Below, piece by piece: positions 1,702-63,939 of a stretch of DNA of 64,000 nt. The stretch is from a virus. The first letter of the stretch is position 1, and each line of letters opens with the position of its first letter. Location of the stretch: positions 1-64,000 of the IMG/VR virus record IMGVR_UViG_3300037586_005524; one strand, written 5' to 3'. Below the pieces are notes generated by a model. The model saw only the letters and a program-made list of their open reading frames with translations. It made no database searches and had not been told where the DNA came from. The position numbers and the translations under genes are program-made.

Positions 1702-3273
1702 TTAAATGTCTAATTTAAGCTTAAATGTATATTCATCCGTTTCTAATTTTCTAACAGGTGTCGCGACTTTTGCGATTGCTATAAGATTTCTGTCTTTATC
1801 GTATATACCAATTTTATCAATAAATGTTTGTTTTTTAAAGCTCCCTGTAAACCCGCCCTTAAAAGAGCTACTAATTGTATTTTTAATGGTTTTGACATCG
1901 CTTTCTTTATAGAAAGAAGACCCAGATATTGAACCAGAACCTTGGCCAAAATTTAAATATGTAGGATTGTTTGACCAATTTAAATACCCTTTTTTAGCGT
2001 GAGCCATCATTGTAATTGTGGGAATATAAGTTGTGCCTGAAAATAACAATTCAAAAGAAGAGCTATGTAAAGATGCAGTGTTTACAGTTCGATAACTGCT
2101 CCCCTTGTCTGATGTATACTGGCCTTGGTTAGCATCCCAATTGTTTGGATACCCATCATTCATTCCTGTTCCAAAATAAATCCACGAGGGGCTATCGCCA
2201 GAATTATAACGCTGATAATCTTGGAGTCGCGGAGGCCCAAATATTGGATTCGAGGTTCCTTCTGGGCTAGTGAAAGCTGTGCTCTTTCCTGTTGTTAAAT
2301 CCCAGCTACCTGTTAAAACAATAGCGCCCTCATTATAAAGTACGATTCCGGCAACAGAACCAGACTGAAAGCTTCCAGAAGGGCCGGTTTGAATCAGTTC
2401 TCCATTTCTTTTTGGATCTTTCAGTTCCCCAACCAGAGTGCCAGTTATATAATATTTTAAATTTACAGTTCCTTTTTTGATGGCGCTTCCAAAAAATATC
2501 GAAGGCACATCAATAATAGAAACAGCTTGATAACTTTTGTCCCATGCGTGATAGCCTAATTCTTTTCTTGAATCAACTGGGTGAAAAGAAGAAGAATAAG
2601 TAAAGTGTGGGCTCCATTTTCTATAATAATTAATAGTATTTTCTAATGCCTGAATATATTTCTTTTTTAATTCTGGGGCATCTGTTATGGTTAGTTCCTT
2701 TGTTGGGTTTGCTGGGTTTTTTGTTTTTATCGTAGTTTGATCTTTTGTTTGATAAAAATATGTATTACCATCCGGGCCTGCAGGATCTATTTCATTTCCG
2801 TTTTCGGCGGAACCTTCGGTATAAAATATTCTTGTAATAGAAGCAGTTAATGGATAGCTTCCGCTTATTATATCCCCATAGTTAAAATCGTCTACATATG
2901 AATCGTACGCTACGCTTTTTAAAGAAATTTTACTCCCGGCTTTTGTTATAAAAGGAAAGATCAGGCTTGCTTTACCTTCATCAGTATCAGGACCCCAATT
3001 GCTGGCGTCGCCGGCGTTTGCTGTATTAATAGTGTGTAAGTCTTCGCGCCTATCAATGTTCATTTCATATGAATTAATATAACCAGAATTACAAGAACTA
3101 GTGTGGGCGCCCACAGAATACCCGACGTGCCCAATTGGACTGTTATATGCTCCACTTATAACATATTGATTATTATAATATGTGCAACCTTTCCAACTAA
3201 AAAAGTGACAACTTGGATGTGCTTTTATGCGATTGAAGAAAACGTCGTCTTCATTAAATTTATAATATGGCAT
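1702..3273 (-). CDS. baseplate/tail-fibre attachment structural protein with C-terminal tail-collar-like segment
   Basis: C-terminus IGIYDKDRNLIAIAKVATPVRK resembles the ELGLYDxxGxLIAVA motif of P2 gpH-like tail-collar domains; paralog of 3292..4461. Confidence 0.6.
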   Translation of the reverse strand: MPYYKFNEDDVFFNRIKAHPSCHFFSWKGCTYYNNQYVISGAYNSPIGHVGYSVGAHTSSCNSGYINSYEMNIDRREDLHTINTANAGDASNWGPDTDEGKASLIFPFITKAGSKISLKSVAYDSYVDDFNYGDIISGSYPLTASITRIFYTEGSAENGNEIDPAGPDGNTYFYQTKDQTTIKTKNPANPTKELTITDAPELKKKYIQALENTINYYRKWSPHFTYSSSFHPVDSRKELGYHAWDKSYQAVSIIDVPSIFFGSAIKKGTVNLKYYITGTLVGELKDPKRNGELIQTGPSGSFQSGSVAGIVLYNEGAIVLTGSWDLTTGKSTAFTSPEGTSNPIFGPPRLQDYQRYNSGDSPSWIYFGTGMNDGYPNNWDANQGQYTSDKGSSYRTVNTASLHSSSFELLFSGTTYIPTITMMAHAKKGYLNWSNNPTYLNFGQGSGSISGSSFYKESDVKTIKNTISSSFKGGFTGSFKKQTFIDKIGIYDKDRNLIAIAKVATPVRKLETDEYTFKLKLDI

Positions 3274-3291
3274 AAAATTTGTTCCATTGGT

Positions 3292-4461
3292 CTAATAATC
3301 TAGTCTAACACGAATTGTTAATTCATCTTCCGGAGTTTTCTTCAAGGGCTCAGATAGCTTGGCCACAGCTAACATTTCATTTTGCGCATTAAATAAGCCA
3401 ACAGTTGTAATATATGTGGTTGATATATCATCTGAGTTGTTTTTAACATTAATTTGGCCTCCAGATACATATGTTGGATTAGAACTATAATTAAACTCAT
3501 TATGGTTAACTCTGCAGAAATAGATTGCAGAATTTAATTCCGTGGTATTATTAAATTGAATATTATAAATTCTATTTCTTAAGCCGTCGCATGCCGCTTG
3601 AATTGTTGAACCAGTAAACATTTGCACACCTGAAGCAGATAAGCCAGAGCCCAATTCACATATGGCTTGGCCACCGTCATTGGCGGCACCATTGAAAAAG
3701 GCGCCTGCTCCAAGAGACGAGGACGCTCCACCAAAAACTGAACCAGAAATAACTGCCACCCCTGCTTGATAATAAATCAGTCCAGCAGGTAGATAACTCT
3801 GCACCTCACCAATTGTTTCGTTTCCAAGTAATGCCGTGCTTAAAGTGCTGTCGCCATCATATGATGTTTGAGCAAAAAGCACACCATATTCGCCTGCAGG
3901 AGAATTAACTTTATATCCATCCGACCCACTTCTATCTGTTAATTTTATTCTTCTTGAATGTACTGCGCCAAAATCAAAGCCACCACTAATGCCAAGCTCT
4001 AATTGAAAAGTACCTTTTTTAATTTCATCTTTAACAAGAAGTCTGGAGAAATTCAAAAAGTAAACTTCATCCATTTTATCGCCACTATCAATAGTTGATC
4101 CTCCGACGTCAAATCGAAGAATTGAACCAGTATGATCATAACCAGCTAATACCTGAGCCATTTGATTATAAATGTTTATTTTTTTCTCTTGTTGTGTCCC
4201 GGGCGTTGAGGCAGAAAAACTTGAATGTGCGCTAAACCCACAAGTAACGTCAAAAATATGATTTGCAGAAGAGCTTAAATATGGGTAATCATATACTGAC
4301 TGGAACATCCCATGTGAATAATTTTTTACATTTTCATCCGCATCAGAAACCACGTAGGTTCCAGAAATAAGCGATCCCGTTAGGGGGATATGTTCATGAA
4401 TTAAAGTTTTTCCTGTTTTTTTATCTTTTGGGGTTATTTCTTTTGAATCGCCAGTTGCCAT
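3292..4461 (-). CDS. baseplate/tail-fibre attachment structural protein, paralog of 1702..3273
   Basis: Shares IKKGT, G(I/L)xxYxxG, NxSxNPTY and the C-terminal VGLFNAQNEMLAVAKLSEPLKK...IRVRLDY with its neighbour. Confidence 0.6.
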   Translation of the reverse strand: MATGDSKEITPKDKKTGKTLIHEHIPLTGSLISGTYVVSDADENVKNYSHGMFQSVYDYPYLSSSANHIFDVTCGFSAHSSFSASTPGTQQEKKINIYNQMAQVLAGYDHTGSILRFDVGGSTIDSGDKMDEVYFLNFSRLLVKDEIKKGTFQLELGISGGFDFGAVHSRRIKLTDRSGSDGYKVNSPAGEYGVLFAQTSYDGDSTLSTALLGNETIGEVQSYLPAGLIYYQAGVAVISGSVFGGASSSLGAGAFFNGAANDGGQAICELGSGLSASGVQMFTGSTIQAACDGLRNRIYNIQFNNTTELNSAIYFCRVNHNEFNYSSNPTYVSGGQINVKNNSDDISTTYITTVGLFNAQNEMLAVAKLSEPLKKTPEDELTIRVRLDY

Positions 4462-4484
4462 TATTTATTATACCTCTTTTTTAT

Positions 4485-5540
4485 TTAATTACTACAATCA
4501 ACAAATTCCTTTGACTTGTAAAATCTAACAGGAACATCTATTGATGCACCTGTGTAGACACCTGATACTCGAATATAGGAATCTATTCTCCATAGAGTTC
4601 CGGCTGCGGCCTCTGCATCAATATCATTTGTGCCGCCGGCGGTGTAGCATGTGCTGCTATTACCTATGGTTGCAGCTGTGGTGTCCCAATCAGTACCAGT
4701 ATCTTGCGTCCCATGTTTCTGCCAAAGACTTTTTGAAGAATCTGGGTCTCCACTTTGTAATAAATCTGAAGCCATAATTTTAAACTCTATCTTATTGCCT
4801 CGCAGCCATCTTATTTTTGGTTGGTGGGGCTTTAGAGAGTCATCAAATTTATTCATTTCTGTAACCAAATCGGATCCCGCGGTTGCAAGAAGGAGTTGAA
4901 TTGCATCCTCATCGACAAAACTTCCATTTTGAGTTTCGCCGGTTACATTTGCGATTTGACAAAACCTACTATCATATTCAATATAAAAACTATCTTCATT
5001 TAATTCTGATAAATTGCTACCTTTCAAAGGTCCTGGTGTTTTTCCAGGAGTGTCGATCCCAAATTCTAATCGGATTCGCGAATTGGATTGCCCGGGGAAC
5101 ACTCCATTGAGAACGCCTGTTTCTGCATGCGCTCCCATCGCCCGGGCAGTGCCGACAGTACATGCAACAATAAATGTTTCTTTTGCTGGATCATACTGAA
5201 AAAACCCCACGTCTTTCCCATAACTTTTTTCCACCTCTGTGTTTAAAATTAATTGGGGCAAATAAAGAAGGTTAGGGTTTGTATAAGATATTAATTTGCT
5301 ATTAAGGGAGACCTCATTGTTGGTTAATGCTTCAAGAATTGGCGTTTGAAGAATCTCTAAATCATAATATGGGCTGCCACCTGTGTGATCTAAATTAAAA
5401 TTTTCATAATTTATTTCGTCGTCACCCAATTTAAAATGATTTATTTTAAAAGTTCCGTCGCCGCGGGCCATTGCGCGTCGGCCGGCGTCGGTTAATACTG
5501 CATCTAAAATAATATCTCCACTGTTATCTTGAAAAGCCAT
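4485..5540 (-). CDS. virion structural protein with N-terminal tail-collar-like segment
   Basis: DAVLTDAGRRAMARGDGTFKINHFKLGDDEINY resembles the LTxxG...GD start of P2 gpH-like collar domains; AGGAG RBS. Confidence 0.55.
   Translation of the reverse strand: MAFQDNSGDIILDAVLTDAGRRAMARGDGTFKINHFKLGDDEINYENFNLDHTGGSPYYDLEILQTPILEALTNNEVSLNSKLISYTNPNLLYLPQLILNTEVEKSYGKDVGFFQYDPAKETFIVACTVGTARAMGAHAETGVLNGVFPGQSNSRIRLEFGIDTPGKTPGPLKGSNLSELNEDSFYIEYDSRFCQIANVTGETQNGSFVDEDAIQLLLATAGSDLVTEMNKFDDSLKPHQPKIRWLRGNKIEFKIMASDLLQSGDPDSSKSLWQKHGTQDTGTDWDTTAATIGNSSTCYTAGGTNDIDAEAAAGTLWRIDSYIRVSGVYTGASIDVPVRFYKSKEFVDCSN
4486..4493 (-). promoter_or_regulatory. candidate late promoter motif AGTAATTA
   Basis: 24 nt upstream of ATG 4461, followed by a GAGG RBS. 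Confidence 0.4.
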
Positions 5541-5630: not shown

Positions 5631-8600
5631 TTAGTCTATCGGCGCCTTTGGTTTTAAATCATAGCCAAGGCCTTCGTGGCTATGAACAAAGTTCAAGTTT
5701 AAATCAAACATTTTTCCAGAAGATTTACTAGTAATTCTTACTTTAAATTTTTTTGCGCGGGGTCGACCGAAGAGCGGGCCTAAAATAACATCCTGGTCCT
5801 GTTTACTCTCTGCATCATATATACTAGCTGCTTCGGGGGCACTTAAATTACTTTGTTTTATCGTAGGAACTATATGTACATATTTTTTCATGCTTTTAGT
5901 CTTTTCTCTTGAGGTCTTTTCAGTAAAATCAACAATTTTGTTGCTTAAATAAATTGCGCCACTATCATCTATCAATTCAACTTCAAAAATTGGACTTGGA
6001 TTTGAAACATAGCCATGCCTATCCGTTGATCTGAACATATAATAATATTTTTTATTTGGCGAAACATTATCAATAAAATCTTTTTTATCTGGGGCCATCT
6101 CTTTTCTCAGGGCCGTGCTAAAATCTGACCAATCTATCGGGTGCTTTTCAAGTCTAAATATTTGATATGTATAATCTGGCTCATCTGATTTAAAAATAAT
6201 TTCAGAAGATGTGCCCTGTGCCGATTTTGCTTTATTAAATAATTCTTCATCCCCAGGTAAAATTGGGATTGGAACATCTTCGCGTTCACCTACGTATTGA
6301 CTAAATAAAAATAATAATTTGTTATTTATATTTTGATATGGAAATATTTCCATATTAGGATATAGTGGCGGAGCATCTGCCGTATACAAAGTTGGGAGTT
6401 TTATGTATGGAATTTTTAATAATTTAATTTTTGGTTTATTAATAGTATAAATAGTTGCAACTGGTGGACGCTTTTGGGTGCTGCTAGCAAGTTCGACGTC
6501 TATTATCTGTGTTTTTGTAGCTCCTTCTGGTGTCGGGAAATACCGATCAACAAGATTAATAGTTTCTCCCTGGATGTCTTGATATTGATATTCATTTCCT
6601 ACAACTATGACATAAGTATAAATTGTATAATCATACCCTTCATTAAGTTTGATTTGGCTATCAATATATTCAATCGATGCTTCGCCACTGAGATTGGTGG
6701 GCGCGGCAATAAAGAATCTTTGGACTATTTGACCGTGCTTGCTTTTTTCAATCTCGTAAAACATTATTTCAGTATGTGAAAAAGGATTCATATCATAATG
6801 GACACCGTACTTTTCGCGGGGCGCACAACGGCTTCGGCCTGGTGGTTGACATATCTGTTTGCCCGGGCTAACCTTTATCTCCTTCCCATCGTAAAGGGGC
6901 GCATTAAGAATCTCATAAATAGATCTCGTATTCGCGAACTCTTTAAGTTTGTCCGTGACCTCCCAAAAGGCATTACGAGCAGGAAGGGGTATCCCATTAA
7001 TGTCATCATCGAGGTCGTGCCATCCAGTATTTTCGATTCCAAAGTCGAAAGAAAGAAGATTAGATGATTCCACAGCGAAGTCATCGCTGCTCCACGCACC
7101 TACAAATTGTGTCAAATCCCATGAAAAAGTGTCTATACTTTCTTTAGAATCCACCTCTCTTTTCCAATAATTTTCTTCAGTTTCCATTACGAGTGGGTTG
7201 CCGGCAGCAAGAGCCATTAAAAACAGCATCAATTGGTCCTGACTTGGATCTGGGTCGGATCCCTCCCCTTCACTATTAAATATTTTTTTCAAAAACTGGT
7301 CCGCGGGACGCGCCTCCGGTACATTAATTGTTATGTCGGTCGCCCATGGTTGGTGAAAAAGGTCAAAACGATATTCTTGTAAAAATTTATACTTTGGAAA
7401 GCCAAATATAAAAGCTCCTTCGGGTTTTTCAAGGCTAGGCACACTTATAGAGTTATTCTCATTTGGGTTTACCATTTGTGTCCAAATTTGCATATATTGA
7501 TCAACGCCTATATTTTGATCAAAATACCATGCGTATGAATTGATCATCAGGCTGGGGTCCAAACTATATTTTGCTATCCCTCCTACTGTTAATAAATCAC
7601 CATATATTGTATTTGCCACGGTGCCGTCGGGGAATTGTCGATAAAATCTTTCTTTGTTCTCTGCTAGTTGACCAAGCAAATAACTATTTGGAATAAGAAG
7701 ATGTTGTTGATCAGACAAAATATTTACCGCGGCCTCGTAATTTAAATTGCTGTAATTTACCACTGAGCTTTGGCGGGCCGGGTCAAATCTTGGATGGTTT
7801 AAATGGAAGGCACTATCAGTGTAAAGGTTGTATTCGTTTATACCTTTTGAAACACTGGAAGGTCCGTAAGCATGTGTCCTATTTTTATAAGTCTCTCTAA
7901 TATGTTTGGCAAAGACAAGATTTACTTTAGGCGACCATAATTGCCATTGGTTTCCCGCCTCCATCGGATTCATAGTTTCTTCGCCGGCGTCCATCATCAC
8001 TTTCCTTGCTGCTTCATTACTATAAAAAATATCTGTGGTTTCTAAAAATATAACCTCCTCGGGAACGGTTAGCCCGAATTCATCGATAACAATTAATTCG
8101 GCGAGTTGTTTCTGTGTTGTTACTTTGGGCCCCTCGGTGCCTTGATGTGTCACTTCCGGCGTGCCATGGAATCCCATTTTTTCGTAAAAGGGCTTATAGG
8201 TTTCGAACCCGACTCGGCTCATGGCATCGTGATGATCGGCATCATAAAGCCAACCATTAAGTTTAGGATTATACATGTCAGGGTAAACACCCGGTTCGTA
8301 TATATCGATCAAGTGAGTGTGGTGAGGCGGAAATGGTCCGTCCAATGGATCGTGACCGGTCGTTTTAAGAGTGGCTAATATATCTATGCCAATGTCAGAG
8401 TCCTTGAAAAAATTAGCTATTTCTGCCCAGGCTGAATTTATGAACACTCCAGTGGTAAAGCCGCTATTATGTGCATTTATGTAGCCTTCGTGATAATGAG
8501 GCAAATAACCCGAATGTATGGCTTCGATGGCATATGCATGCCATTGGTCCAAAGTCTCGGGATTCTCGGCTGCACTACTTTGCCACCAAGACTTAAAAGT

Positions 8601-8993
8601 TTCCCACTCTGGGGTTGCCTGAGTAGAAACAGTTCTTATTTTTTTCTTTGCTAAAACGCGAAAAGTTTTGGCATGAGTCTGGCCGGGTGACTGGCGCCAC
8701 TTTGGACTTGGGCGTACAAATCTATTTTCTGTTTCGTTTCCCCAGCCTGGAAGGTCGACCAGTGAGTCGCCGGCGCCACCGGAATACATCCAGTGTCCAA
8801 AATAAGGTCTTAGTGGGTCTCCAGGGTGTCCCTCGCCCGTCATCGCGGTGGAATGAATGATCGTGGGGTTTAAATATAGAGGGGTTATAGACCCATAGAT
8901 TTTTTGCGCATTTTGGTGAGCCAATGAGAGGTGTTCGTTGAGCGTTTGGCCGCCAACGAGGCCGCCGGCAAGTAGATATGTTCTATGTGGCAT
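5631..8993 (-). CDS. large putative virion protein with C-terminal fibronectin type III-like segments
   Basis: 1120-aa ORF; FN3-like strands YIDSQIKLNEGYDYTIY and FIDNVSPNKKYYYMFRSTDRHGYVSNPS; start overlaps the upstream stop (TAATG). Confidence 0.55.
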   Translation of the reverse strand: MPHRTYLLAGGLVGGQTLNEHLSLAHQNAQKIYGSITPLYLNPTIIHSTAMTGEGHPGDPLRPYFGHWMYSGGAGDSLVDLPGWGNETENRFVRPSPKWRQSPGQTHAKTFRVLAKKKIRTVSTQATPEWETFKSWWQSSAAENPETLDQWHAYAIEAIHSGYLPHYHEGYINAHNSGFTTGVFINSAWAEIANFFKDSDIGIDILATLKTTGHDPLDGPFPPHHTHLIDIYEPGVYPDMYNPKLNGWLYDADHHDAMSRVGFETYKPFYEKMGFHGTPEVTHQGTEGPKVTTQKQLAELIVIDEFGLTVPEEVIFLETTDIFYSNEAARKVMMDAGEETMNPMEAGNQWQLWSPKVNLVFAKHIRETYKNRTHAYGPSSVSKGINEYNLYTDSAFHLNHPRFDPARQSSVVNYSNLNYEAAVNILSDQQHLLIPNSYLLGQLAENKERFYRQFPDGTVANTIYGDLLTVGGIAKYSLDPSLMINSYAWYFDQNIGVDQYMQIWTQMVNPNENNSISVPSLEKPEGAFIFGFPKYKFLQEYRFDLFHQPWATDITINVPEARPADQFLKKIFNSEGEGSDPDPSQDQLMLFLMALAAGNPLVMETEENYWKREVDSKESIDTFSWDLTQFVGAWSSDDFAVESSNLLSFDFGIENTGWHDLDDDINGIPLPARNAFWEVTDKLKEFANTRSIYEILNAPLYDGKEIKVSPGKQICQPPGRSRCAPREKYGVHYDMNPFSHTEIMFYEIEKSKHGQIVQRFFIAAPTNLSGEASIEYIDSQIKLNEGYDYTIYTYVIVVGNEYQYQDIQGETINLVDRYFPTPEGATKTQIIDVELASSTQKRPPVATIYTINKPKIKLLKIPYIKLPTLYTADAPPLYPNMEIFPYQNINNKLLFLFSQYVGEREDVPIPILPGDEELFNKAKSAQGTSSEIIFKSDEPDYTYQIFRLEKHPIDWSDFSTALRKEMAPDKKDFIDNVSPNKKYYYMFRSTDRHGYVSNPSPIFEVELIDDSGAIYLSNKIVDFTEKTSREKTKSMKKYVHIVPTIKQSNLSAPEAASIYDAESKQDQDVILGPLFGRPRAKKFKVRITSKSSGKMFDLNLNFVHSHEGLGYDLKPKAPID

Positions 8994-11900
8994 TAATACG
9001 TCCTCCCTCCGCCAGAACTCATTCCTCCCCCTGTTGTAGTAACGGTTCCTGGCGTAGTGGCAGTTGTTATAGCTGCTGTTGTTTGTGTAGTCTTAGTTTT
9101 GCTTGTCTGCCGAAACTTGGCCGCTTCGCCAAACATCATATTAGTTCTTACAAAATTACTGTTTATTTTTAATAAGCTATTATTATCTAGTGAGGTGGGG
9201 ACCTCTACTGGCCTTATTGTTCTTTTTGGTCTCCGCGCTGCCGTGCGAGGGGTTCCTTCAGCATTAATCAAAAAACATTGATTAAAAAGGTTTAAATCTA
9301 AAACCCTATTTTGATTAAAACATAATTTAGGATTAGTATATGGACTTAGGCGGCATAATAATTTTTTATTTGGACTGCGTGAGGCATTTTCAAGATGATC
9401 TCTTCTCAATCTTGTCCAAATAGGAGCGGCTATCGCTCCTCTATCAAAGCCAACCAGCACTTCAATTAAAACTATATTCTTTTGATTTAAATAATAAAAA
9501 GCTGCATTTTTTAATTGTTTTAATTGGGGCTCGCCGTTGTCATACCATGCTTGTTTAGTCAACGTAGAGCCTGCGCTACTAGCAGCTATAGCTTTTAATT
9601 GATTTGGCAAAAATTTAAATTCTGATGTTGATAAATTTTGTTTGCTTATATTAAGATTTAGTGCAGTGCTGCAACAACAGATTTCTTTTGCTATATCCAA
9701 GTTGTTCATATAAAATAAGGGGGCAAATATAAATGATGGATTAATTTTGGTTTCCTCTGTTATATTAATTCGATCTTCTCTGTCGTCTTTCGCTTGAATT
9801 TCTTTTTTATATTTTTCTGCAACGGAATTGTGCATTAATTTTGCAATTGTATTTTCTTCCTTGCTAGGTATTTCGTTGCATGAAGATTCATATTTTTTTA
9901 AAGCAGTCGTATTTATAATCGCCATATTCTGCGCTAAACCATTTTTAACATGTGTAGAGAATCCATCTGATTTTTGAGCAAATATATCCCCGGTCGTGCA
10001 TGAATTTGATTGTGATTTTCCAACTTCGGCTAAAGTTGAAATATTTTCTTTATGTAGCCGATTCATAGTTTTATGGGAGTACAGATCCATTAGCACACTA
10101 AAATGTCCTAATTCTGAGGCATTCTGTATCTGGCCCTGATCTCCTTTCCCATAAGTTCTAAAATTTCTACCTAGTATTTTAATTAAAGCAGGGGTCAAGT
10201 AGGAAAATTGAGTTGTACTCAATTGATTCTCGTACCTTTTATTGCCGGCTAAAATTCCTGTTTGTTGGGCGCTCTGCTTAAAAAATCGTAAATTTTCATT
10301 CATTGTTCTTCGTAAAAAGTCCGCGCTAGAAAAAGTCATCAAGCCTATTTCAGATGTTTTTGAACCATAAATAACGTCAAGATAGTCATATCCAACCTCT
10401 CCATTGTTTTTTGCGTTGAATATATCGGGAAAAACATGATTTATAGAAATAGTTTGTGTAAATGTTTTTTTTCCGGAAATAACTGCGTTAGAATTCATCT
10501 CATCTATATTTCTTGTGTTTTTAGAAGGAAACTCTTCTACTAAATCTTGAATAAAAGAACTAACATTATTATATATATCAATTACTTTTGATATACTTTC
10601 TGTGGTTGCGGTATTAGGAGAGGACAAGATATACATTTGCTGCTCATCATTATTTTCTAAATTGGCAAACGCCTTCACCGCTTTCAATAATATATTCAAG
10701 GCCCAGACCCACGGGCCTTTGTCATTTACCATATAATTTTTTCTAAGAGTGCCAGATTTAAAATCTTTAAAATATAATTCCATTGCTTTTCGACCTTCTG
10801 TTAAATCATTTAAAAGCTGTTTTATATATTTTATTGTCCCGTCTTCAACTTCTAATTTTACACCATATTTGAATAACCCATCTTTTATATCTTGCATTGA
10901 TATATCTGTTGAGCCAAAATATCTAATTTGTTTAGATGAGTTTAAATTATTAAAAGTGCTGGTTGATGGTTCGAGATATAAACCTTTGACCTCTGTTAAC
11001 TTGCCAATTATTTTTTTTACATTACTAATATGATTTGCTATGTGAGGATCTTTTTTTACAGAATAGTCTGTTGTGGCGACGACGGCGCCAACTTGTGTTG
11101 ATCGTGCAATAGTTTGTTGAACATTGTTGTGGCTTTTGCTTTCTGGAGAAATGTCGCCGGCTTCATTAACTTTCTCTCGTGTTAACACTATATTTTTTAT
11201 TTCGCTTAAGCTCATTATTTCATCAAAACTAAGTTTGCTAGAATCTAGAGCTAAAGAAAAATCAGTTTCACTAGCAACCAATCTAGGTAATTTGAAATTA
11301 TTTTTGCTAATTTCTCCCAAATCAATTGCAAAAAAGAGCCTAATAAATCCATTTTTATCGTTTGTTATACACAAATTAGAAAATTGAGCATTTTTTTTAT
11401 CAATCAAGGGTTTATTTTCTAATAATCTACAACTAAAATTTACTTTTGATATTTTATCGAGGACCCTATAATCATGCAATGTTGTATTTGGAATTTTTAC
11501 AAGATTTAATTTTGGACCTATAACAGAAGAATTATCTCCCATAGAACCAACATGCCCATCTGATGTAAACTGTACTGGACCCGTCCAAACTCTTTTGCCT
11601 CCTTGAGAAACTAAATAGTCTTCTTGCCCTTTGGGCAAAGTAACTGTTGAATCTCGAAAAACAAAAACATTAGCGTTCCTCACTATTGTTTTATTCCTAA
11701 AGACGTCCTCTGAAGCAATTGTCGCTGTGTTGATTAATAAATTTTTATAACTTGGGCTGGAAGATATTCTCCTTGCATGCCGTGGGTGATTTGGGTTATA
11801 TTGACAAATGGCATAGAACGATAAGTCCGAAGTATTCTTATCAATAAAAAATTCTTGTGTGACTGTGTTTTTAGAGCCCAAATCAAACGTCTTGACTTCT

Positions 11901-13272: not shown

Positions 13273-13284
13273 TTCTTTTTATTC

Positions 13285-22479: not shown

Positions 22480-22483
22480 GTGC

Positions 22484-25935: not shown

Positions 25936-25959
25936 ATTTAACGTATTTCCCTTATAATA

Positions 25960-26352: not shown

Positions 26353-26372
26353 AAAAATCTCTCCTTTAGTTA

Positions 26373-26380
26373 TAATTACT
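26373..26380 (-). promoter_or_regulatory. candidate late promoter motif AGTAATTA
   Basis: Intergenic, 20 nt upstream of gp25 ATG 26352. Confidence 0.4.
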
Positions 26381-26425
26381 TCTTTTTTATAAAATTGGGC
26401 CTATCTTTCTAAATTCTTTTTAATT

Positions 26426-45180: not shown

Positions 45181-46020
45181 TTAATATTCCTTTTGATTTT
45201 TAATTAACATTTCTATTCCATCCCATATGCTATATTTTGGCTTAAACCCCAAATTATTTAATTTTGCAACGTCCAAATACATATCTTTAACTTGTACTGT
45301 TTTATGAAAATGTGGTGGTTCTACAGAAATAAAATTACTCTTTGAGTTTGTTCGTTGTTTAACATAATTCATCATATCTATAAACCTATGTGGTGTCCCG
45401 CTTCCAATATTAATAATTTCATTTAAAGGAGCTTCTTTCACAACAAGATTTATCGCACGACATACATCTTCTACATGCATAAAATCTCTTATATCTTCAC
45501 CAGAATTATATAAATTAATGTCTTTACTATTAACAACCTCTCCTATTAAATATTGTAATGCGTTTCTTTTTTTAGAAACTTTTTTATCTTCTATTCCATA
45601 TATATTACAAAGTCTTAAAATTCTATAATTAATATCAAATGTTTCGCAGTAAGATATTAATAATTGTTCAGCCGTCCTTTTAGTAATAGAGTAAAATCCT
45701 TTAGGGTTACAACAAGATTCTTCTTTAGCAGGAAGATCATCGGTCTTGCCATACACAAACCATGAACTAATAAAATTAAAGACTATATTTTCTTTATCTC
45801 TACATTTTTCCAGCACGCTAACTAATAAATTTAAATTCGTATTAATATCCAAGTGTGGGTTCTCAAATACATTATAATTATTATTAGTACTTATAAAATA
45901 TATAATATCCTTTGTTTCTGAAGAGAGTTGAAAACGTGGGACAGTCAAAGACTCAGTAGCATATATATTAGAGTACACGCTGCCTATAAATCCTGTGGCG
46001 CCAAAAATTGCTATCTTCAT
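45181..46020 (-). CDS. NAD-dependent epimerase/dehydratase
   Basis: GATGFIG, ISSWFVYG, YSITK, RLCNIYG, RDFMHVED. Confidence 0.9.
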   Translation of the reverse strand: MKIAIFGATGFIGSVYSNIYATESLTVPRFQLSSETKDIIYFISTNNNYNVFENPHLDINTNLNLLVSVLEKCRDKENIVFNFISSWFVYGKTDDLPAKEESCCNPKGFYSITKRTAEQLLISYCETFDINYRILRLCNIYGIEDKKVSKKRNALQYLIGEVVNSKDINLYNSGEDIRDFMHVEDVCRAINLVVKEAPLNEIINIGSGTPHRFIDMMNYVKQRTNSKSNFISVEPPHFHKTVQVKDMYLDVAKLNNLGFKPKYSIWDGIEMLIKNQKEY

Positions 46021-53557: not shown

Positions 53558-54466
53558 TTATATGTTTGCAATAATTTTCTCATATTCTTTCAATGTATCA
53601 TCAATTGTTCTTGTATAACTCATTGCTTTTTCTTTATAGCTATCATAATTTGCTTTCATTTCTTTTATTGAGTTTAACAACCCATCAAAATCTGAGTACT
53701 CTAATCCATACTCACAACAATAATTATTTATACTTCCACCATTGCTGTGGTAAATAACAGGTAAACCTGCAGCTAGTGCCTCTAAAACATGATTGGCGCC
53801 TGCTTCTTCTTCTGACGCGGTTAAATATATATCACTTTCTGATATTTCTTTAGCTAAATACTCATTATCTCCTGTTGGGTCAACATGATTAGAATTATTA
53901 AAATAAAAATTCTTTGGAAGTCTACCAATAAAAGTAAAATTTATATTTTCGGCGACGTGATCATCCAACAGTTTATAATATTCAAACCCTTTTTTTGGAT
54001 TTGTTGACCAATGATGGGTTATTATATTAAGGGTATCATTTAATTTGTTGCTTTTTTTATATTTATGAAATATTTTTAATGGTCCATTGTGAACAATGTT
54101 GTAATTTTTTCCTCCATAATCAACATATTCTTTGGCCCACTCGCTTGGAAAAATTAAATGATCTGATGTTAATATTGTTTGTTTAATAAGATTAGTTAAT
54201 TCCGGTTTCCCGTGAGTCCCAAGATCTCCAACTCTTTGAATTATTTTTGTTCGAGGCCGGGAATTTTTATAATTTAAAAAATGTTGGTACCACTCACCAT
54301 TTTTGTTTGGTCTGGGATCAAAACAAAAAATCATATCAATATTATCCTCCAACCGAAAAGTAACTTGATGGCCTGTTTTCTCCAATGTTTCAGAAAGTTT
54401 AGTCACTGTTTTGTTTCCACCGCCCCATGGCCCTTTTAACGGTTGTCTATTAAGATAAATTTTCAT
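53558..54466 (-). CDS. glycosyltransferase family 4 (GT-B)
   Basis: GPWGGGN, IFPSEW, VHNG, EAGANHVLEALAAGLPV (EX7E). Confidence 0.88.
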   Translation of the reverse strand: MKIYLNRQPLKGPWGGGNKTVTKLSETLEKTGHQVTFRLEDNIDMIFCFDPRPNKNGEWYQHFLNYKNSRPRTKIIQRVGDLGTHGKPELTNLIKQTILTSDHLIFPSEWAKEYVDYGGKNYNIVHNGPLKIFHKYKKSNKLNDTLNIITHHWSTNPKKGFEYYKLLDDHVAENINFTFIGRLPKNFYFNNSNHVDPTGDNEYLAKEISESDIYLTASEEEAGANHVLEALAAGLPVIYHSNGGSINNYCCEYGLEYSDFDGLLNSIKEMKANYDSYKEKAMSYTRTIDDTLKEYEKIIANI

Positions 54467-54476: not shown

Positions 54477-55463
54477 TTACAAAAACTTAGAATCAAGAAT
54501 TGGATTCGCACCATAATATTCAGAATACCATGAAATGGTTTTTTTGAGACCTTCATCTATATTATATTTTGGGCTAAAGCCTGTAGCTTCTCTTAAAAGT
54601 GTTAAGTCTGGGCAACGACGTTGTACACTTCCCTCTGGAGGTTGTTTAATATCAAATTTAGGATTATAATTAAAATATTTAACTACTTTTTCAGCTAAAT
54701 TCATTATTGGCATTTCCTCTTTATCATTGCCAATATTAAATACTCCTTTTTTATCACTTAATGCCAGGTTCATAGAGGCTCGTACGGCGTCACTGACATA
54801 ACAAAAAGATCTTGTTTGAGTTGCTCCGTATATATTAAATGGGTCTTCTTTGAAATATGCTCTTTTAATAAACTGAGGTATGACATGCTTAAACCCCATT
54901 CGTGGGCCATAAATATTATTATATCTAATAATTTGAAACTCTAAATCATGTTGATGAGAAAAATTAGCAACAAGAAGCTCCCCTGTTATTTTGCTCCCAC
55001 CATATGAATATCGAGGATTGAAAATATCGTCAATACATAATTCAACTGTTTCTGGGGTTGGGATAAGATCTTTTCTAAATTTAAAAGTACAAGAATATGT
55101 TTCTGAGGAGGAGGAATAAACAAATTTGGTTTGACAGCCTTTAAAATATTCTAATAAATTCATGGTGGACAAAATATTAACACGCATTACATCATAAGGA
55201 ATTGTATAAAAATTTTCTGTTCCATTGATGGCGGCCAAATGAAAAATAATATCATAATCTTTATCTAATTTTATTATTTCATCCATTTTTGTGAGATCGC
55301 ATTTTATAAATTTGGAGCCGCGCGAAATTAAGCCGTCTATAAAAGCATCTTTGACCCCTCTTAGATTATTATCACAAATATGGACAATATTGCTGTTTTC
55401 CAATGCGTAATCTGCTAAATAGGCGCCGATGAAACCACTACCACCAGTAATTAAAATTTTCAT
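54477..55463 (-). CDS. NAD-dependent NDP-sugar epimerase/decarboxylase
   Basis: ITGGSGFIG, FHLAAING, SSSETY, PRYSYGGSK, RSFCYVSD. Confidence 0.92.
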   Translation of the reverse strand: MKILITGGSGFIGAYLADYALENSNIVHICDNNLRGVKDAFIDGLISRGSKFIKCDLTKMDEIIKLDKDYDIIFHLAAINGTENFYTIPYDVMRVNILSTMNLLEYFKGCQTKFVYSSSSETYSCTFKFRKDLIPTPETVELCIDDIFNPRYSYGGSKITGELLVANFSHQHDLEFQIIRYNNIYGPRMGFKHVIPQFIKRAYFKEDPFNIYGATQTRSFCYVSDAVRASMNLALSDKKGVFNIGNDKEEMPIMNLAEKVVKYFNYNPKFDIKQPPEGSVQRRCPDLTLLREATGFSPKYNIDEGLKKTISWYSEYYGANPILDSKFL

Positions 55464-56729: not shown

Positions 56730-57828
56730 AAAAATCTTTTATGACCTCACAAACATAATTAATTTGTTCTTCGCTAATATTAACAAAAGAAGGCAAACAA
56801 ATTCCATTATCATAGGACTTTTCTGCCACTGGAAAGTGCTCTCTATTATAACGAGGATCTTTCTTCCAATATTCAAAGGCCGGCTGTAAGTGCAACGGAT
56901 AAAAAAACATTCTTGGTTCTACATCGTTTTCTCGCATATGTTGCATTAAGTCTTCAGCTTCATCTTTTTTAGTTTTCAAAATAACTCTAAAAGGAATGTA
57001 AGGGCATACCTCTTCTGGAGGTTGATAAATATCAACATGCTTAAACTCAGAAAAAGCTTCTGTATACTTTTTATGAATAAAATTTTTCTTTTCTACTAGG
57101 GTATCAAACTTTTTCATTTGAGCTAAACCAATTGCGCATTGAATATCAGTCATTCTGAAATTATAGCCCACTTGAGGATGAACAAAAGTTCCTCTTCCTC
57201 TTCTTCCTTGATTTCTAAGATACAAAAGCTTCTCATAGACCTCTTCATTGTTTGTGGTTACAAAGCCGCCTTCGGCAGTTGTAAGGGTTTTATCTGCGAA
57301 AAAAGAAAAACAACCAACATCTCCAAAACTGCCGCAACCTTTGCCTTTCCATTTTATACCAAGCGCTTGGGCTGCATCTTCAATTACCAGCAAATTATGT
57401 TTTCTTGCATATGCCATTACTTGATCCATATTAGAAGTAAATCCAAAAAGATGAACTGGCATGATTGCTTTTGTTTTTTCTGTTAAAACGCGGTCGCAAT
57501 CTTCTACGTTAATTTGTAAATTTTCACAAACATCAACAAATACAGGCTTTGCGCCTAAAAATTCGACAGAAGTGGCGGAAGCAAAAAATGTAACATCCGG
57601 CACAATAACTTCGTCGCCCGGGCCTATTCCTAGTGCTTTTAAGCCCAAAATCAATGCCAGCGTGCCATTTGGTGCATAAACCCCATATTTCACGCCAATT
57701 TTTTCACACAACTTTTGATTAAATTCTTTAGCTAATGGACCTTCTGTTATCCAATTTGTTTCAAAACATTGTTTTATTGCTTCATATTCTTCCATCCCAA
57801 CGAATGGCATAAACTGTGGTACTTTCAT
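56722..57828 (-). CDS. DegT/DnrJ/EryC1/StrS sugar aminotransferase (perosamine synthase-like)
   Basis: NGTLAL, GPGDEVIVP, IEDAAQALG, FSFFADKTLTTAEGG, GYNFRMTDIQ. Confidence 0.95.
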   Translation of the reverse strand: MKVPQFMPFVGMEEYEAIKQCFETNWITEGPLAKEFNQKLCEKIGVKYGVYAPNGTLALILGLKALGIGPGDEVIVPDVTFFASATSVEFLGAKPVFVDVCENLQINVEDCDRVLTEKTKAIMPVHLFGFTSNMDQVMAYARKHNLLVIEDAAQALGIKWKGKGCGSFGDVGCFSFFADKTLTTAEGGFVTTNNEEVYEKLLYLRNQGRRGRGTFVHPQVGYNFRMTDIQCAIGLAQMKKFDTLVEKKNFIHKKYTEAFSEFKHVDIYQPPEEVCPYIPFRVILKTKKDEAEDLMQHMRENDVEPRMFFYPLHLQPAFEYWKKDPRYNREHFPVAEKSYDNGICLPSFVNISEEQINYVCEVIKDFYV

Positions 57829-60393: not shown

Positions 60394-61191
60394 TCACTCC
60401 TCTCTCATCCCCTCAAATACCGTTGTTTTATACTTTGAATTTTCTTCTAATAACATTTCAAAAAATCCTACATCTAGTTTTAAATTTTTTACCATGGCTG
60501 CTATAGTTCTTGTATCTTTTGGCAAACACGGCCCACCAAAACCTCTAAAATCTTCATTGCAGTTCAAATAAACATCATTAATATGATTTCTTTGTGTTAT
60601 TGTGTTTTTTATTTTAGTATAATCGGCGCCGGCGGCCTTGCATACTTCATAAAAGCTATTTGCAAAAGTTACCAAAGTTGCATTATAAATATTATTGAAA
60701 TATTTAATAAATTCTGCTTCTAAAGGAGATAGTTGTACAAACTTTTTTGGATAATATCCATGTACATTTTTTAACATTTCATATGTCGAGAAATTATCAG
60801 TGCCTATAACACACAAATCATGATTATCAATAAAATCTGCAACTGCACATCTTTCTCTAAGAAATTCCGGAATAAAGCATAATTCTAAGTTTGGATACGT
60901 TTTTGAAAATTTATTTATAGTTCCAGGAGCAACTGTAGATTTTATAGCAACAATTCCTTCATAATTATATTCATTTAAATCATCTACTACCATTTCAACA
61001 ATGTCAGTGTCGCACTCTCCATTTTCTTTAGATGGAGTTGGAACACAAACAAAACAGATATCAGTATCAAGCACATCTCTAATAGAAGAATCATATTTTA
61101 TATCATGCACTCTCATATTATGACCTAATTTTTTTAATCCTTCATGGACGGCGGCGCCAACTATGCCGGCGCCAATAATACCAATTTTCAT
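60394..61191 (-). CDS. UDP-glucose/GDP-mannose 6-dehydrogenase family (short form), second copy
   Basis: IIGAGIVG, VPTP, KSTVAPG, PEFLRE, GFGGPCLPKD; start MKIG after GGAG. Confidence 0.9.
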   Translation of the reverse strand: MKIGIIGAGIVGAAVHEGLKKLGHNMRVHDIKYDSSIRDVLDTDICFVCVPTPSKENGECDTDIVEMVVDDLNEYNYEGIVAIKSTVAPGTINKFSKTYPNLELCFIPEFLRERCAVADFIDNHDLCVIGTDNFSTYEMLKNVHGYYPKKFVQLSPLEAEFIKYFNNIYNATLVTFANSFYEVCKAAGADYTKIKNTITQRNHINDVYLNCNEDFRGFGGPCLPKDTRTIAAMVKNLKLDVGFFEMLLEENSKYKTTVFEGMREE

Positions 61192-61192
61192 A

Positions 61193-62155
61193 TTATTTTT
61201 CTCCAGAAATTTTTGTAACAATAAAAGTATAAGGACTTGGATGTGAATAAACTATTTTAAGACCTATACTCTGAACAAAATAAGAAATTTCACTAGGATC
61301 ATAAGTCCATATATATGGAGTTGTACAATCTTCTAAATGTAGTGCTTCTTCAATTTTTTTTATAGAATATTTTTTACATAATTTTTTAAGGCCGCTTATC
61401 ATATTCGAGTATTTTGTGTCTTTAACCAAAAGCATATCTTTTAAGCTTTTTTGTTTTTTTTCATAATGCCATAATTTTCCTATAATTTTTAAAAACTCAT
61501 AAGTGTTTTCTAAACTTTCATTTAAAAATATTTCTCTTATATCCCAAGTGATTTGTGGGACATCGTTATCAGTAAAAAAATTAAAAATTAAAAACCCATT
61601 TGGTTTCAGTAAGTGTGACAAATCTTTTAATGTTTTTTTATAATCGCGTTGATGGTGTAGCGCCATATGATGAATAATCACATCAAATTGTTCTGAATTA
61701 AATACATTTGTAATCTCTTCTATATCTGTCTGCAAAAAACAAAAATTCTCTAAAGGGTTTTTTAAATTATTTAAATTAATAATATTATTAAAAAAAATAT
61801 TTTCTTCTTTTCTATAAGGAATTCTTTTATTTTTAAGGGCCTCGTGGGTCATTTTTGGACCAACATAAGAGCCATCTGCTGCGCACACAAATTTGGCGCC
61901 TAATTCAGCCGCAACTATAGAAAATCTACCAAGGCCCGAGCATGCATCTAAAACTACTTTATCTTTAAAATTTATATTTCCTCCGGAAAACCGCAAAAAC
62001 TTTTGAATTCGAGATTTTCCCCAAGAGTCATCAAGGAAATCTCTTGATTGCAGTTCCCACATTCTATCATACAAATCATTATTTTTAGCCTTATTGTTTA
62101 CATAAACGCCTTTACAATTTTTTAAAGAATCAAAATCTTTAAATATATTAATCAT
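61193..62155 (-). CDS. class I SAM methyltransferase
   Basis: VLDACSGLG, FDVIIHHMALHH, LLKPNG. Confidence 0.85.
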   Translation of the reverse strand: MINIFKDFDSLKNCKGVYVNNKAKNNDLYDRMWELQSRDFLDDSWGKSRIQKFLRFSGGNINFKDKVVLDACSGLGRFSIVAAELGAKFVCAADGSYVGPKMTHEALKNKRIPYRKEENIFFNNIINLNNLKNPLENFCFLQTDIEEITNVFNSEQFDVIIHHMALHHQRDYKKTLKDLSHLLKPNGFLIFNFFTDNDVPQITWDIREIFLNESLENTYEFLKIIGKLWHYEKKQKSLKDMLLVKDTKYSNMISGLKKLCKKYSIKKIEEALHLEDCTTPYIWTYDPSEISYFVQSIGLKIVYSHPSPYTFIVTKISGEK

Positions 62156-63077
62156 TTTGTTCTCCTATAGTTTTTGTGAACAAGCCTGCGTACTCTTCAA
62201 CGAGATTGTGCATGTCATATCTTTTAACGTTATTATAGCAAATATTTATATCATTATTAATTGGAAAATACATATTTTTAGGTATATCTACCACACAATT
62301 TTTGTTTAAAACCGCAGTAGCCATGCCCACATCCCTCGATATTATAGGGATTTTCATTGCAGAGGCTTCTAAAATTGCTTGTGGACCTCCCTCTACTCTC
62401 GATGCAACTATATATAAATCACAACAAGCATACATATCTTTTAATGTTTCTAGTGGCGCCATCTCTATAAAGTGAAAATTAATATTTTCTTCTTCGAGGC
62501 GATTAATTATATATTGTCTTCTCCAACCGCCTAACAACACAAATAAATTGTCTTTATTAATTTTTTTAAGAGTCTCAACGAATAAATCTGGGCCTTTTTC
62601 GAGTTTTGGGCTTATTAAGTCTGAGCCTTCTGTATCCCTCTGAAAGCTTCCAACAACATAAGCATCAGCAGGAATTTTTAATTCTTCTCTAGCTTTATAT
62701 TTGTCAGTCGGGCTCCATATTTTTGAATTATACCAATATCCAATAACCTCTACTGGTTTTTTTGTCATTTTAGAAATAAAATCCTTGGTTTTTTGACAAG
62801 GAGTGTGATAACAATCTACATATTTGTCTCTTACAAGAAACTCACGAAGAGAGTCTTTACTAAACTTTTCAGGCACAACGTGGTGAATAGTAACTACAAC
62901 TTTCTTTTCAATAAGAAATTTTGCTGGTATATTCCTCCAAAGCCACGGACTAATAATCCACAACAAATTTGCATTGTTTAAATTATCTGTATGATATTGT
63001 GGTTTAAGTTCTCGCCATTCCTTGACAATTCTATCAAGAATCCAATTTTCTTTTGGTGCTAGTGAAAAAATCTTCAT
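62148..63077 (-). CDS. glycosyltransferase family 4 (GT-B)
   Basis: GSFQRD, EKGPD, DLYIVASRVEGGPQAILEA. Confidence 0.88.
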   Translation of the reverse strand: MKIFSLAPKENWILDRIVKEWRELKPQYHTDNLNNANLLWIISPWLWRNIPAKFLIEKKVVVTIHHVVPEKFSKDSLREFLVRDKYVDCYHTPCQKTKDFISKMTKKPVEVIGYWYNSKIWSPTDKYKAREELKIPADAYVVGSFQRDTEGSDLISPKLEKGPDLFVETLKKINKDNLFVLLGGWRRQYIINRLEEENINFHFIEMAPLETLKDMYACCDLYIVASRVEGGPQAILEASAMKIPIISRDVGMATAVLNKNCVVDIPKNMYFPINNDINICYNNVKRYDMHNLVEEYAGLFTKTIGEQND

Positions 63078-63939
63078 ATTTTTTTGCTACTTTCCTCATA
63101 TCATAATCGCTATCATGATTATTTTTTATTTTTTTTGTAAAGTCCATTGGTGGTGGTTCATATAATTTTACGGGCTCGAAGTCCCACTCGTCTTCTTTAA
63201 TAATAATGGCGTTTGGACCTGCTATTTCTTTTGTTCCACCTGCAGAAGAACATATGATTTGACATCCACTTGCACGAGCATCAACAACAACATTTGGACA
63301 GTGATCAAGCCACGCTAAATGTATGAAATATTTAGATCTTTTATATAAAGAAATAAGTTGTAAAATGTTTGTGTTGCCAATATAAAAGATTCTATCATCT
63401 TTTAAAATATCTTCGTTCTTTTCGCCGGCGATTACTAAACAATCTTTTTCAGAAGAGTGTTCTAAAAAATAATTCATATTCTCCGACAATCTTTTGTGTG
63501 GGCGCCAAGATGAAGCACAGCACCATACATTTTCATATTTATCTAATCGCGAATTAAAAGAGTGTGGCACTTTATCAATGTATTCAATATCAGCGCCATT
63601 GTGTATAACAATGGAATTTTTATGTTCTCCAAAATATTTTGTTATAAGCTGCTTATTAAAATTTGATTGAAAAATGGCGCCATCAGCACCGTCATAAGTC
63701 CTTTTTATGTTTGTATTCCGTATTCTGTAATTTTGCGCTGTGTTGAAATATATGCCGTCTAATCTTTGAAATAATGGTATATTATCAAAAGTACTTCTAT
63801 AAGATTCTATAAAACATAATCTTGCATCCGGGGCTTTATTTATATCAAAAGTCGTATCTAAGTATTTCATCAATTTTGAAGCAAAGTGGTTTGGCCCAGA
63901 TGTGCTTCGCAAATCAACGTTTTCTAAGTGTATATTCAT
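63034..63939 (-). CDS. glycosyltransferase family 4 (GT-B)
   Basis: QRLDG, IFQS, IHNG, WRPHKR, DHCPNVVVDARASG; related to 53558..54466. Confidence 0.88.
   Translation of the reverse strand: MNIHLENVDLRSTSGPNHFASKLMKYLDTTFDINKAPDARLCFIESYRSTFDNIPLFQRLDGIYFNTAQNYRIRNTNIKRTYDGADGAIFQSNFNKQLITKYFGEHKNSIVIHNGADIEYIDKVPHSFNSRLDKYENVWCCASSWRPHKRLSENMNYFLEHSSEKDCLVIAGEKNEDILKDDRIFYIGNTNILQLISLYKRSKYFIHLAWLDHCPNVVVDARASGCQIICSSAGGTKEIAGPNAIIIKEDEWDFEPVKLYEPPPMDFTKKIKNNHDSDYDMRKVAKKYEDFFTSTKRKLDS

Follow-up and report, generated by a model that had tools for sequence, protein, structure and literature searches.

GGCGCC and GCCGGC head a genome-wide excess of uninterrupted palindromes in an uncultured marine T4-like phage

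The GC-only palindromes GGCGCC and GCCGGC are strongly over-represented in the virus record IMGVR_UViG_3300037586_005524, which derives from an uncultured marine T4-like phage, and they lead a broader excess of uninterrupted palindromes that spans the genome. The DNA analyzed here (the window) comprises the first 64 kb of this 83,220-base IMG/VR record, whose CheckV completeness is 46%. The window has a G+C content of 35.5%, is 99% coding, and carries every gene on the minus strand. Both words are about three to four times commoner than the encoded proteins and codon habits require. We give roughly even credence to the reading that they are not discrete functional sites but the product of a lineage-specific, DNA-level bias toward uninterrupted dyad symmetry.

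Exact counting recovered 36 GGCGCC and 26 GCCGGC in the window, close to the roughly 40 and 25 that a first-pass annotation had estimated by eye. Every coordinate it listed was verified, as were the fused GCCGGCGCC at 42671 and 61165 (with further copies at 8769 and 16222) and the three reading frames it had named (Gly-Ala at 45997, Met-Ala-Pro at 62455, and Trp-Arg-Pro at 63501). Base composition predicts 2.0 copies of each word, and 100 dinucleotide-preserving shuffles of the window gave a mean of 4.1 for each, with a maximum of 10. Synonymous-codon shuffles within genes (n = 500) yielded 8.6 GGCGCC and 8.7 GCCGGC, with maxima of 19 and 17. Over all coding sequence in the 83-kb record, the observed 43 and 33 copies compare with 10.7 and 10.9 under the codon shuffle, and with 15.0 and 14.6 under a null that keeps the protein, the codon usage, and all dinucleotides; the counts are thus not reproduced by the codon- and dinucleotide-preserving shuffle that the first-pass annotation had named as able to dissolve the signal. 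Under both codon-aware nulls, GGCGCC and GCCGGC rank first and second among all 4096 hexamers, with z values of 8.8 and 6.2, and no other hexamer has z >6. Markov expectations of order 3-4 (16-26) were not used as a null, because the pentamers belong to the same signal and make a high-order expectation unsuitable. The 78 sites in 83,220 bases are spaced 1015 bases apart on average, in a distribution that fits a random exponential with gaps of up to 7.8 kb.

The other outcome that the first-pass annotation had named as refuting, equal enrichment of all GC-only hexamers, was borne out only in part. The remaining GC-only hexamers are all enriched too, by ~1.3-1.6x in frame and 1.5-2.0x off frame, but the two words clearly exceed this background (~3x in frame). 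Runs of at least 8 G/C bases are likewise abundant, with 100 observed versus 12.5 expected.

Analysis of reading frames revealed that most copies (about 80-90%) follow a single codon arrangement. In the window, 27 of the 36 GGCGCC lie in frame 0 as Gly-Ala (GGC-GCC), and 23 of the 26 GCCGGC as Ala-Gly (GCC-GGC). Record-wide, 33 of 98 Gly-Ala dipeptides are written GGC-GCC where codon usage predicts 7.0 (4.7x), and 29 of 116 Ala-Gly dipeptides are written GCC-GGC where it predicts 8.3 (3.5x). These are the strongest of all codon pairs in the genome (p 9e-13 and 1.5e-8), and neither Gly-Ala nor Ala-Gly dipeptides are themselves over-represented (98 Gly-Ala versus ~96 estimated from residue frequencies). 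The excess needs adjacent codons, dropping to 1.6x with one codon between and to ~1x at distances of at least 3. Bases 3 and 6, the two wobble positions, vary together: the odds ratio is 6.1 in Gly-Ala and 4.2 in Ala-Gly, compared with 1.4 for other contexts pooled; the non-palindromic pairs of the same codons reach 2.0x (GGC-GGC) and 2.3x (GCC-GCC). GGC is commonest before GC-starting codons and GCC before GG-starting codons. No comparable rise was found for ACC, GTC, or TCC before GC-starting codons, and there is therefore no general effect of GC-rich neighbors. The realised fraction is alike in virion genes (0.34/0.30) and glycan enzyme genes (0.44/0.21). The earlier assertion that codon-pair bias alone is insufficient is supported by the off-frame excess described below, although it missed that the majority of copies belong to one codon pair in one frame and that the two words merely head a wider palindrome excess.

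At the level of single codons, wobble G/C climbs from 0.16 to 0.45 as the neighboring bases become richer in G/C, and its correlation along the genes is about zero within 3-5 codons, a loss that rules out a mosaic of GC-rich patches. Translational accuracy at conserved residues was also rejected, given that virion-gene sites fall on residues that differ in a relative.

The excess extends beyond the two words and beyond the frame. Off-frame GGCGCC occurs 10 times in this genome versus 2.6-4.8 expected, and none of 200 shuffles reaches 10. We also assembled a family sample of 80 relatives found with the gp23-like capsid protein, giving 693 kb of coding DNA in trimmed, non-overlapping frames. Pooled over these relatives, off-frame copies number 36 versus 18.8-25.0 for GGCGCC and 39 versus 22.1-27.3 for GCCGGC. 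The palindromic pairs GGC-GCC and GCC-GGC are enriched 1.6-2.0x in frame in the pooled family, and GGCGGC and GCCGCC 1.0-1.2x off frame and 1.1-1.4x in frame.

Perfect uninterrupted palindromes as a class exceed the codon-plus-dinucleotide null increasingly with length, by x1.08 (6 bp), x1.22 (8 bp), and x1.39 (10 bp), and GC-only palindromes do so more steeply, by x1.9, x3.7, and x5.2; the bias is thus stronger for longer words and for words richer in G+C. Mixed-composition palindromes are enriched x1.24 (8 bp) and x1.53 (10 bp), compared with x1.03 and x0.99 for mixed mirror repeats, while GC-only mirror repeats are also enriched (x1.5-2.1). Palindromic GC-only pairs stand at 3.8x versus 1.6x for non-palindromic GC-only pairs. 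Inverted repeats with arms of 4 and spacers of 1-12 occur mostly at 0.95-1.10x, so that a clear excess exists at spacer 0 only; isolated spacers 2, 9, and 11 reach z 2.6-3.8 here, or 2.6-3.9 when the relative G005 is counted. The palindrome excess holds in each of the three codon phases, even when the two core words are left aside, and palindromes long enough to cover 3-4 codons exceed expectation whatever the phase. Of the sites, 40-42% are part of an 8-bp palindrome, and 11 copies of CGCCGGCG are present versus 0.08 expected. Collectively, these patterns support an excess that acts on the DNA word and not on translation.

Comparison with relatives points to rapid change of the sites. A close relative (L008/G001) shares 71% protein identity, with four-fold sites 46% identical, near saturation. 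Site density is alike in the two (7 and 8 in 16 kb, each versus ~2.0 expected), and no site position is shared over 3653 aligned residues, several sites differing by an amino-acid change. Judged from this alignment, the sites appear to turn over fast and not to be held in place.

Other relatives differ widely. The 80 capsid relatives have an overall pair excess of ~2x, and 8-bp palindromes exceed 1.15x in 25 of the 42 loci that have at least 10 kb of coding DNA. Some keep one word with the other absent (9/0 in L082, 7/0 in L046, and 0/8 in L044). G005, a 185-kb relative rated 100% complete, shows the excess and the zero-spacer pattern, and 8 of its top 12 hexamers are palindromic: CCCGGG, GCCGGC, GGCGCC, CCATGG, GGTACC, ACCGGT, CCGCGG, and TCCGGA. 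In G002 (131 kb), G003, and G004, whose gp6 is ~43% identical, GGCGCC is not in excess (6 versus 7 in G002). G002 is without any CCGCGG, CCCGGG, or CGCGCG, and palindromes of 4 and 6 bp are avoided there (x0.91); its wobble G/C is independent of context, its GGC-GCC count is 3 versus 7.4 (0.4x), and it prefers the T-ending pairs GGT-GCT and GCT-GGT, ~1.5x within genes. A Chi-like role for its GCTGGT was ruled out: GCTGGTGG has only 4+2 copies, and one repeat-rich gene gives much of the signal. As a separate feature of G002 (L016-L022), Pro is written CCC in 68% of cases where the next codon starts with GG and in at most 18% elsewhere, with CCC-GGT at 19 versus 2.8.

Three cultured phages (P-SSM2, HTVC008M, and Mel-JY01) avoid palindromes, and a fourth, immuto, is neutral; none of the four shows the excess, and copies occur in HTVC008M only (4 and 1 in 50 kb). 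In P-SSM2 (L028, 1-50000), GGC and GCC amount to only 2-3% of the codons for Gly and Ala, G/C runs of at least 8 bases are missing (10.6 expected), and 6-bp palindromes stand at x0.74. Mel-JY01 (L030, 143500-185353; 32% G+C), a cyanophage in which palindromes are otherwise avoided, strongly over-represents CCCCGG (28/2.0, observed/expected), CCCGGG (23/2.5), and TTCCGG (42/5.9). In the phage studied here, four palindromes are absent or depleted relative to the codon-aware null (CGATCG 0/4.6, CTCGAG 0/4.4, GAGCTC 0/4.6, and CAGCTG 3/11.3), which may represent restriction avoidance of single words. Such avoidance by phages (for example, Rusinov et al. 2018, PMC6286503) concerns the same class of words and is seen in G002, P-SSM2, HTVC008M, and Mel-JY01; unlike it, the signal in this genome, in G001, in G005, and in most of the family has the opposite sign. 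In parts of the family, it is probably restriction avoidance that removes individual words.

The first-pass annotation had linked the words to methylation or repair, and such a link has a precedent in the highly iterated palindromes (HIPs) of cyanobacteria. In this explanation, an enzyme of the host, or of the unsequenced half of the phage, would methylate a cytosine of GGCGCC and GCCGGC (for example, within GRCGYC or RCCGGY), and biased mismatch or very-short-patch repair would ratchet near-sites into sites. The same two words are alternate HIPs, GGCGCC in Calothrix PCC 7103 and RCCGGY/GCCGGC in Oscillatoria PCC 10802, and one model yields both (Elhai 2015, PMC4390886); beyond that study, we found nothing relevant in the literature on both words in phages, in marine genomes, or as a codon pair. 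By its criteria for HIPs, the words here are gross outliers in rank and occur about once per 1000 nucleotides, again in a rather AT-rich genome and with single sites not thought functional. Consistent with such an origin, the two words peak far over other palindromes, lineages gain or lose single words independently, uninterrupted palindromes alone are affected, as with the sites of dimeric type II enzymes, and the two wobble T neighbors, GGCGCT and GCCGGT, fall below expectation (z -2.0 and -2.4). Unlike cyanobacterial HIPs, however, both words occur together, in a lytic-type phage and not a chromosome, and the excess covers uninterrupted palindromes generally. One or two methylases cannot produce the excess of mixed-composition 8-10 bp palindromes. 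The search for methyltransferases and Vsr that the first-pass annotation had called for found no C5 methylase (PF00145), N4/N6 methylase (PF01555), Dam-type methylase (PF02086), or Vsr (PF03852) in the 83-kb record (46% complete), and none in relatives G001-G004 either; complete G005, which has the excess, carries neither PF00145 nor PF01555. In E. coli, Dcm/Vsr very-short-patch repair raises CCWGG and lowers its deamination neighbors. The present case resembles that repair-bias pattern in that a candidate methylase target is over-represented without single-site function, and differs from it in lacking a Vsr gene in the record and in G001-G004, in involving many words, and in its T-containing deamination neighbors, which are at expected counts (GGTGCC 6/6.5, GGCACC 11/10.2, GTCGGC 3/3.6, and GCCGAC 8/8.3). 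The one-off variants predicted by the ratchet are also not consistently raised (GACGCC 16/10.1, GGCGTC 5/5.5, GCCGGT 2/7.9, and ACCGGC 9/9.4). Gene content, in the record and in the relatives searched, does not support a methylase or Vsr link. We judge the explanation unlikely as a whole, while repair linked to methylation by host enzymes is a live alternative for the two top words.

Three other explanations are less likely still. Generic G/C clustering without dyad specificity, arising from a context-dependent mutation bias such as less cytosine deamination in stable GC-rich stretches, would make the two words merely the commonest GC-only codon pairs. The abundance of G/C runs, the enrichment of other GC-only hexamers and of GC-only mirror repeats, and a wobble G/C that rises with its neighbors here and is flat in G002 agree with it; it is nonetheless improbable, as ACC, GTC, and TCC do not respond and the effect is limited to GGC and GCC, palindromic GC-only pairs far outstrip non-palindromic ones, and mixed palindromes are enriched where mixed mirror repeats are not. 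A translational codon-pair preference, in which the host ribosome or tRNA pool favors GGC beside GCC and the palindromes are incidental to these codons being reverse complements, accords with the dominance of one pair in one frame, with the rank of both pairs as the strongest in the genome, with the restriction to adjacent codons, and with the ~1.5x preference of the distant relative G002 for GGT-GCT and GCT-GGT. Against this stand the similarly enriched off-frame copies in this genome and the pooled family, the far weaker enrichment of GGC-GGC and GCC-GCC, the long palindromes over 3-4 codons in each phase, the similar realised fraction in virion and glycan enzyme genes, and the swing of GGC-GCC from 0.4x (G002) to 4.7x (here) inside one phage family, so that we regard such a preference as very unlikely. 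Least probable of all are functional sites kept at ~1 per kb, whether bound by a dimeric phage protein or serving packaging, replication, or recombination, as the first-pass annotation had also proposed. Density near 1 per kb and dyad-symmetric words whose flanks extend the symmetry (CGCCGGCG 11 times) would suit such a role, yet positions are not conserved in the 71%-identical relative, spacing is random with gaps to 7.8 kb, sites are found wherever Gly-Ala or Ala-Gly falls, the excess is common to many unrelated palindromes, and the words are missing from relatives having the same virion genes.

We return to the preferred reading, a DNA-level bias toward uninterrupted dyad symmetry. Under this bias, the two hexamers top the list because GGC (Gly) and GCC (Ala) are the reverse-complement codons of two common residues: a Gly-Ala or Ala-Gly dipeptide would become a GC-only palindrome once just two wobble bases are C. 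Our best guess at the mechanism is mutation by templating. A short, GC-rich and self-complementary seed (GCGC, CCGG) at the end of a nascent strand would re-anneal to the complementary strand at the same spot, and copying of a few bases would then lengthen the palindrome outwards; in some lineages, restriction avoidance would counter the bias, purging single words or all short palindromes. Such a strand switch would fit the clear excess at zero spacer only, its rise shell by shell, and its dependence on G+C. A symmetry drive with restriction avoidance acting against it would account for the excess as a whole, for accumulating as well as purging lineages, and for the lack of a methylase in G005. 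There are related precedents: quasi-palindrome template-switch mutagenesis turns imperfect inverted repeats into perfect ones and is favored by stable arms (PMC7202029), and perfect short inverted repeats are enriched in Proteobacteria (PMC5941160). As in template switching, perfect reverse-complement symmetry exceeds mirror symmetry here and no selection on the product is needed; unlike quasi-palindromes, which have a loop between their arms, this genome and G005 show a clear excess at zero spacer only.

Several observations weigh against this reading. The classical form of quasi-palindrome template switching predicts looped arms, and no consistent excess at spacers 1-12 exists here. GCGCGC and CGCGCG are unenriched in this genome (~0.7-0.8x), a word specificity that a pure stability-driven process does not predict. 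Off-frame GCCGGC in this genome (4 versus 1.8-3.7) is not significant alone, and off-frame GGCGCC barely exceeds the other GC-only words off frame. Plain G/C clustering in this lineage contributes part of the signal. In the 80 pooled relatives, spacer-4 inverted repeats are enriched like spacer-0 repeats, a signal that may reflect intergenic hairpins included by the stop-to-stop frames used there. With these points in mind, we put forward only tentatively the broader proposal of a "palindrome drive" in the large marine T4-like phage family, whereby replication- or repair-templated extension of GC-rich seeds through coding DNA would write GGCGCC, GCCGGC, CCCGGG, and CGCCGGCG about once per kb, in competition with restriction avoidance, so that lineages would swing between accumulating and purging.

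Table 1. GGCGCC and GCCGGC sites in the window (coordinates without strand sign, "."); "in frame" denotes GGC-GCC for Gly-Ala and GCC-GGC for Ala-Gly
Word	Coordinates	Frame and residues	Context
GCCGGC	3010..3015	in frame, Ala-Gly (GCC-GGC), minus-strand gene	inside 8-mer CGCCGGCG, 3009-3016
GGCGCC	3106..3111	in frame, Gly-Ala (GGC-GCC)	
GGCGCC	3700..3705	in frame, Gly-Ala	
GCCGGC	4635..4640	in frame, Ala-Gly	inside CGCCGGCG
GCCGGC	5481..5486	in frame, Ala-Gly	
GGCGCC	5641..5646	off frame, Lys-Ala-Pro	
GCCGGC	7200..7205	in frame, Ala-Gly	inside TGCCGGCA
GCCGGC	7983..7988	in frame, Ala-Gly	inside CGCCGGCG
GGCGCC	8693..8698	off frame, Trp-Arg-Gln	inside TGGCGCCA
fused GCCGGCGCC	8769..8777	Gly-Ala-Gly on coding strand	
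GCCGGC	8964..8969	in frame, Ala-Gly	
GCCGGC	10244..10249	in frame, Ala-Gly	
GGCGCC	11084..11089	in frame, Gly-Ala	
GCCGGC	11156..11161	in frame, Ala-Gly	
GGCGCC	13471..13476	in frame, Gly-Ala	
GGCGCC	13769..13774	off frame, Met-Ala-Pro	
GGCGCC	13901..13906	off frame, Thr-Ala-Pro	inside CGGCGCCG
GCCGGC	13930..13935	in frame, Ala-Gly	
GGCGCC	14899..14904	in frame, Gly-Ala	
fused GCCGGCGCC	16222..16230	Gly-Ala-Gly	same residues in relative L008, written GGA-GCA-GGA
GGCGCC	16978..16983	in frame, Gly-Ala	
GGCGCC	18271..18276	in frame, Gly-Ala	relative L008: Gly-Asp
GGCGCC	21778..21783	in frame, Gly-Ala	relative L008: Ala-Ala
GGCGCC	22108..22113	in frame, Gly-Ala	inside TGGCGCCA
GGCGCC	23282..23287	in frame, Gly-Ala	inside CGGCGCCG
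GCCGGC	26627..26632	in frame, Ala-Gly	
GCCGGC	26717..26722	in frame, Ala-Gly	inside CGCCGGCG
GCCGGC	27395..27400	in frame, Ala-Gly	inside CGCCGGCG
GGCGCC	28346..28351	in frame, Gly-Ala	
GGCGCC	28892..28897	in frame, Gly-Ala	
GCCGGC	29178..29183	off frame, Pro-Pro-Ala	inside CGCCGGCG
GCCGGC	29664..29669	off frame, Thr-Pro-Ala	
GCCGGC	29693..29698	in frame, Ala-Gly	core of 10-bp palindrome ATGCCGGCAT
GCCGGC	29936..29941	in frame, Ala-Gly	
GGCGCC	29982..29987	off frame, Ser-Ala-Pro	
GGCGCC	30322..30327	off frame, Trp-Arg-His	inside TGGCGCCA
GGCGCC	30605..30610	in frame, Gly-Ala	
GCCGGC	31112..31117	in frame, Ala-Gly	
GGCGCC	32525..32530	in frame, Gly-Ala	within 14-base G/C run
GCCGGC	34337..34342	in frame, Ala-Gly	core of 10-bp palindrome CCGCCGGCGG; within 15-base G/C run
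GGCGCC	34449..34454	off frame, Pro-Ala-Pro	
GGCGCC	34955..34960	in frame, Gly-Ala	
GGCGCC	35423..35428	in frame, Gly-Ala	
GCCGGC	36311..36316	in frame, Ala-Gly	
fused GCCGGCGCC	42671..42679	Gly-Ala-Gly of P-loop	APS-kinase-like gene
GGCGCC	45997..46002	in frame, Gly-Ala, N-terminal NAD-binding glycine motif	epimerase-like gene; inside TGGCGCCA
GGCGCC	53795..53800	in frame, Gly-Ala	
GGCGCC	55422..55427	in frame, Gly-Ala	
GCCGGC	56879..56884	off frame, Gln-Pro-Ala	
fused GGCGCCGGC	60625..60633	Ala-Gly-Ala on coding strand	within 14-base G/C run
GGCGCC	61153..61158	in frame, Gly-Ala	
fused GCCGGCGCC	61165..61173	Gly-Ala-Gly, N-terminal NAD-binding glycine motif	UDP-glucose-dehydrogenase-like gene
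GGCGCC	61895..61900	in frame, Gly-Ala	
GGCGCC	62455..62460	off frame, Met-Ala-Pro	inside TGGCGCCA
GCCGGC	63424..63429	in frame, Ala-Gly	core of 10-bp palindrome TCGCCGGCGA
GGCGCC	63501..63506	off frame, Trp-Arg-Pro	
GGCGCC	63676..63681	in frame, Gly-Ala	core of 10-bp palindrome ATGGCGCCAT

These sites lie in a record whose first 39 kb code for virion proteins, among them a gp6-like baseplate wedge (24124-25935), a gp55-like sigma factor, and two very long proteins, one of 3064 residues (window 13285-22479) and one of 3040 (window 26426-35548), both on the minus strand. Sugar-modifying enzymes are encoded at 40-68 kb. Past the window end, the record holds a PD-(D/E)XK nuclease, a PIN-PhoH protein, a tubulin-like protein, and a tmRNA. 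This phage-encoded tmRNA (record 75735-76115; L007 11835-12215, minus strand) has the tag peptide ANDNVEFDYALAA, and its tag tail EFDYALAA-stop, back-translated, had no exact match among the 185,579 prokaryote genomes searched. The sole long plus-strand frame in the window is an open frame of 221 residues at 49111-49776 (+), antisense to the gene at 49092-49832.

Judged by gp6, its closest cultured counterparts are Microcystis phage Mel-JY01 (33%) and Flavobacterium phage immuto (31%). A host search of genome contigs with the gp6-like protein found no relative, and a DNA search of a phage collection gave no match. The phage DNA is present in marine metagenome runs from 22 studies, and contigs of four marine runs aligned to 13001-33000 revealed many related strains, with 833 differences. 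Contigs from other marine runs omit pieces of 0.2-2 kb within the gene for the 13285-22479 protein, which suggests length variation among strains.

Phages are the textbook example of palindrome avoidance. Here, an abundant marine phage lineage reverses that avoidance, in coding DNA and at a cost in codon choice. If the cause is mutational, it would represent an undescribed mutational signature of the phage replisome, one that would bias both coding sequence and oligonucleotide-based host prediction. If it is methylation-linked, the HIP phenomenon, itself unexplained, reaches viruses, which would offer a second, independent test system. With either cause, the words serve as markers of lineages that evade particular restriction systems or are subject to them.

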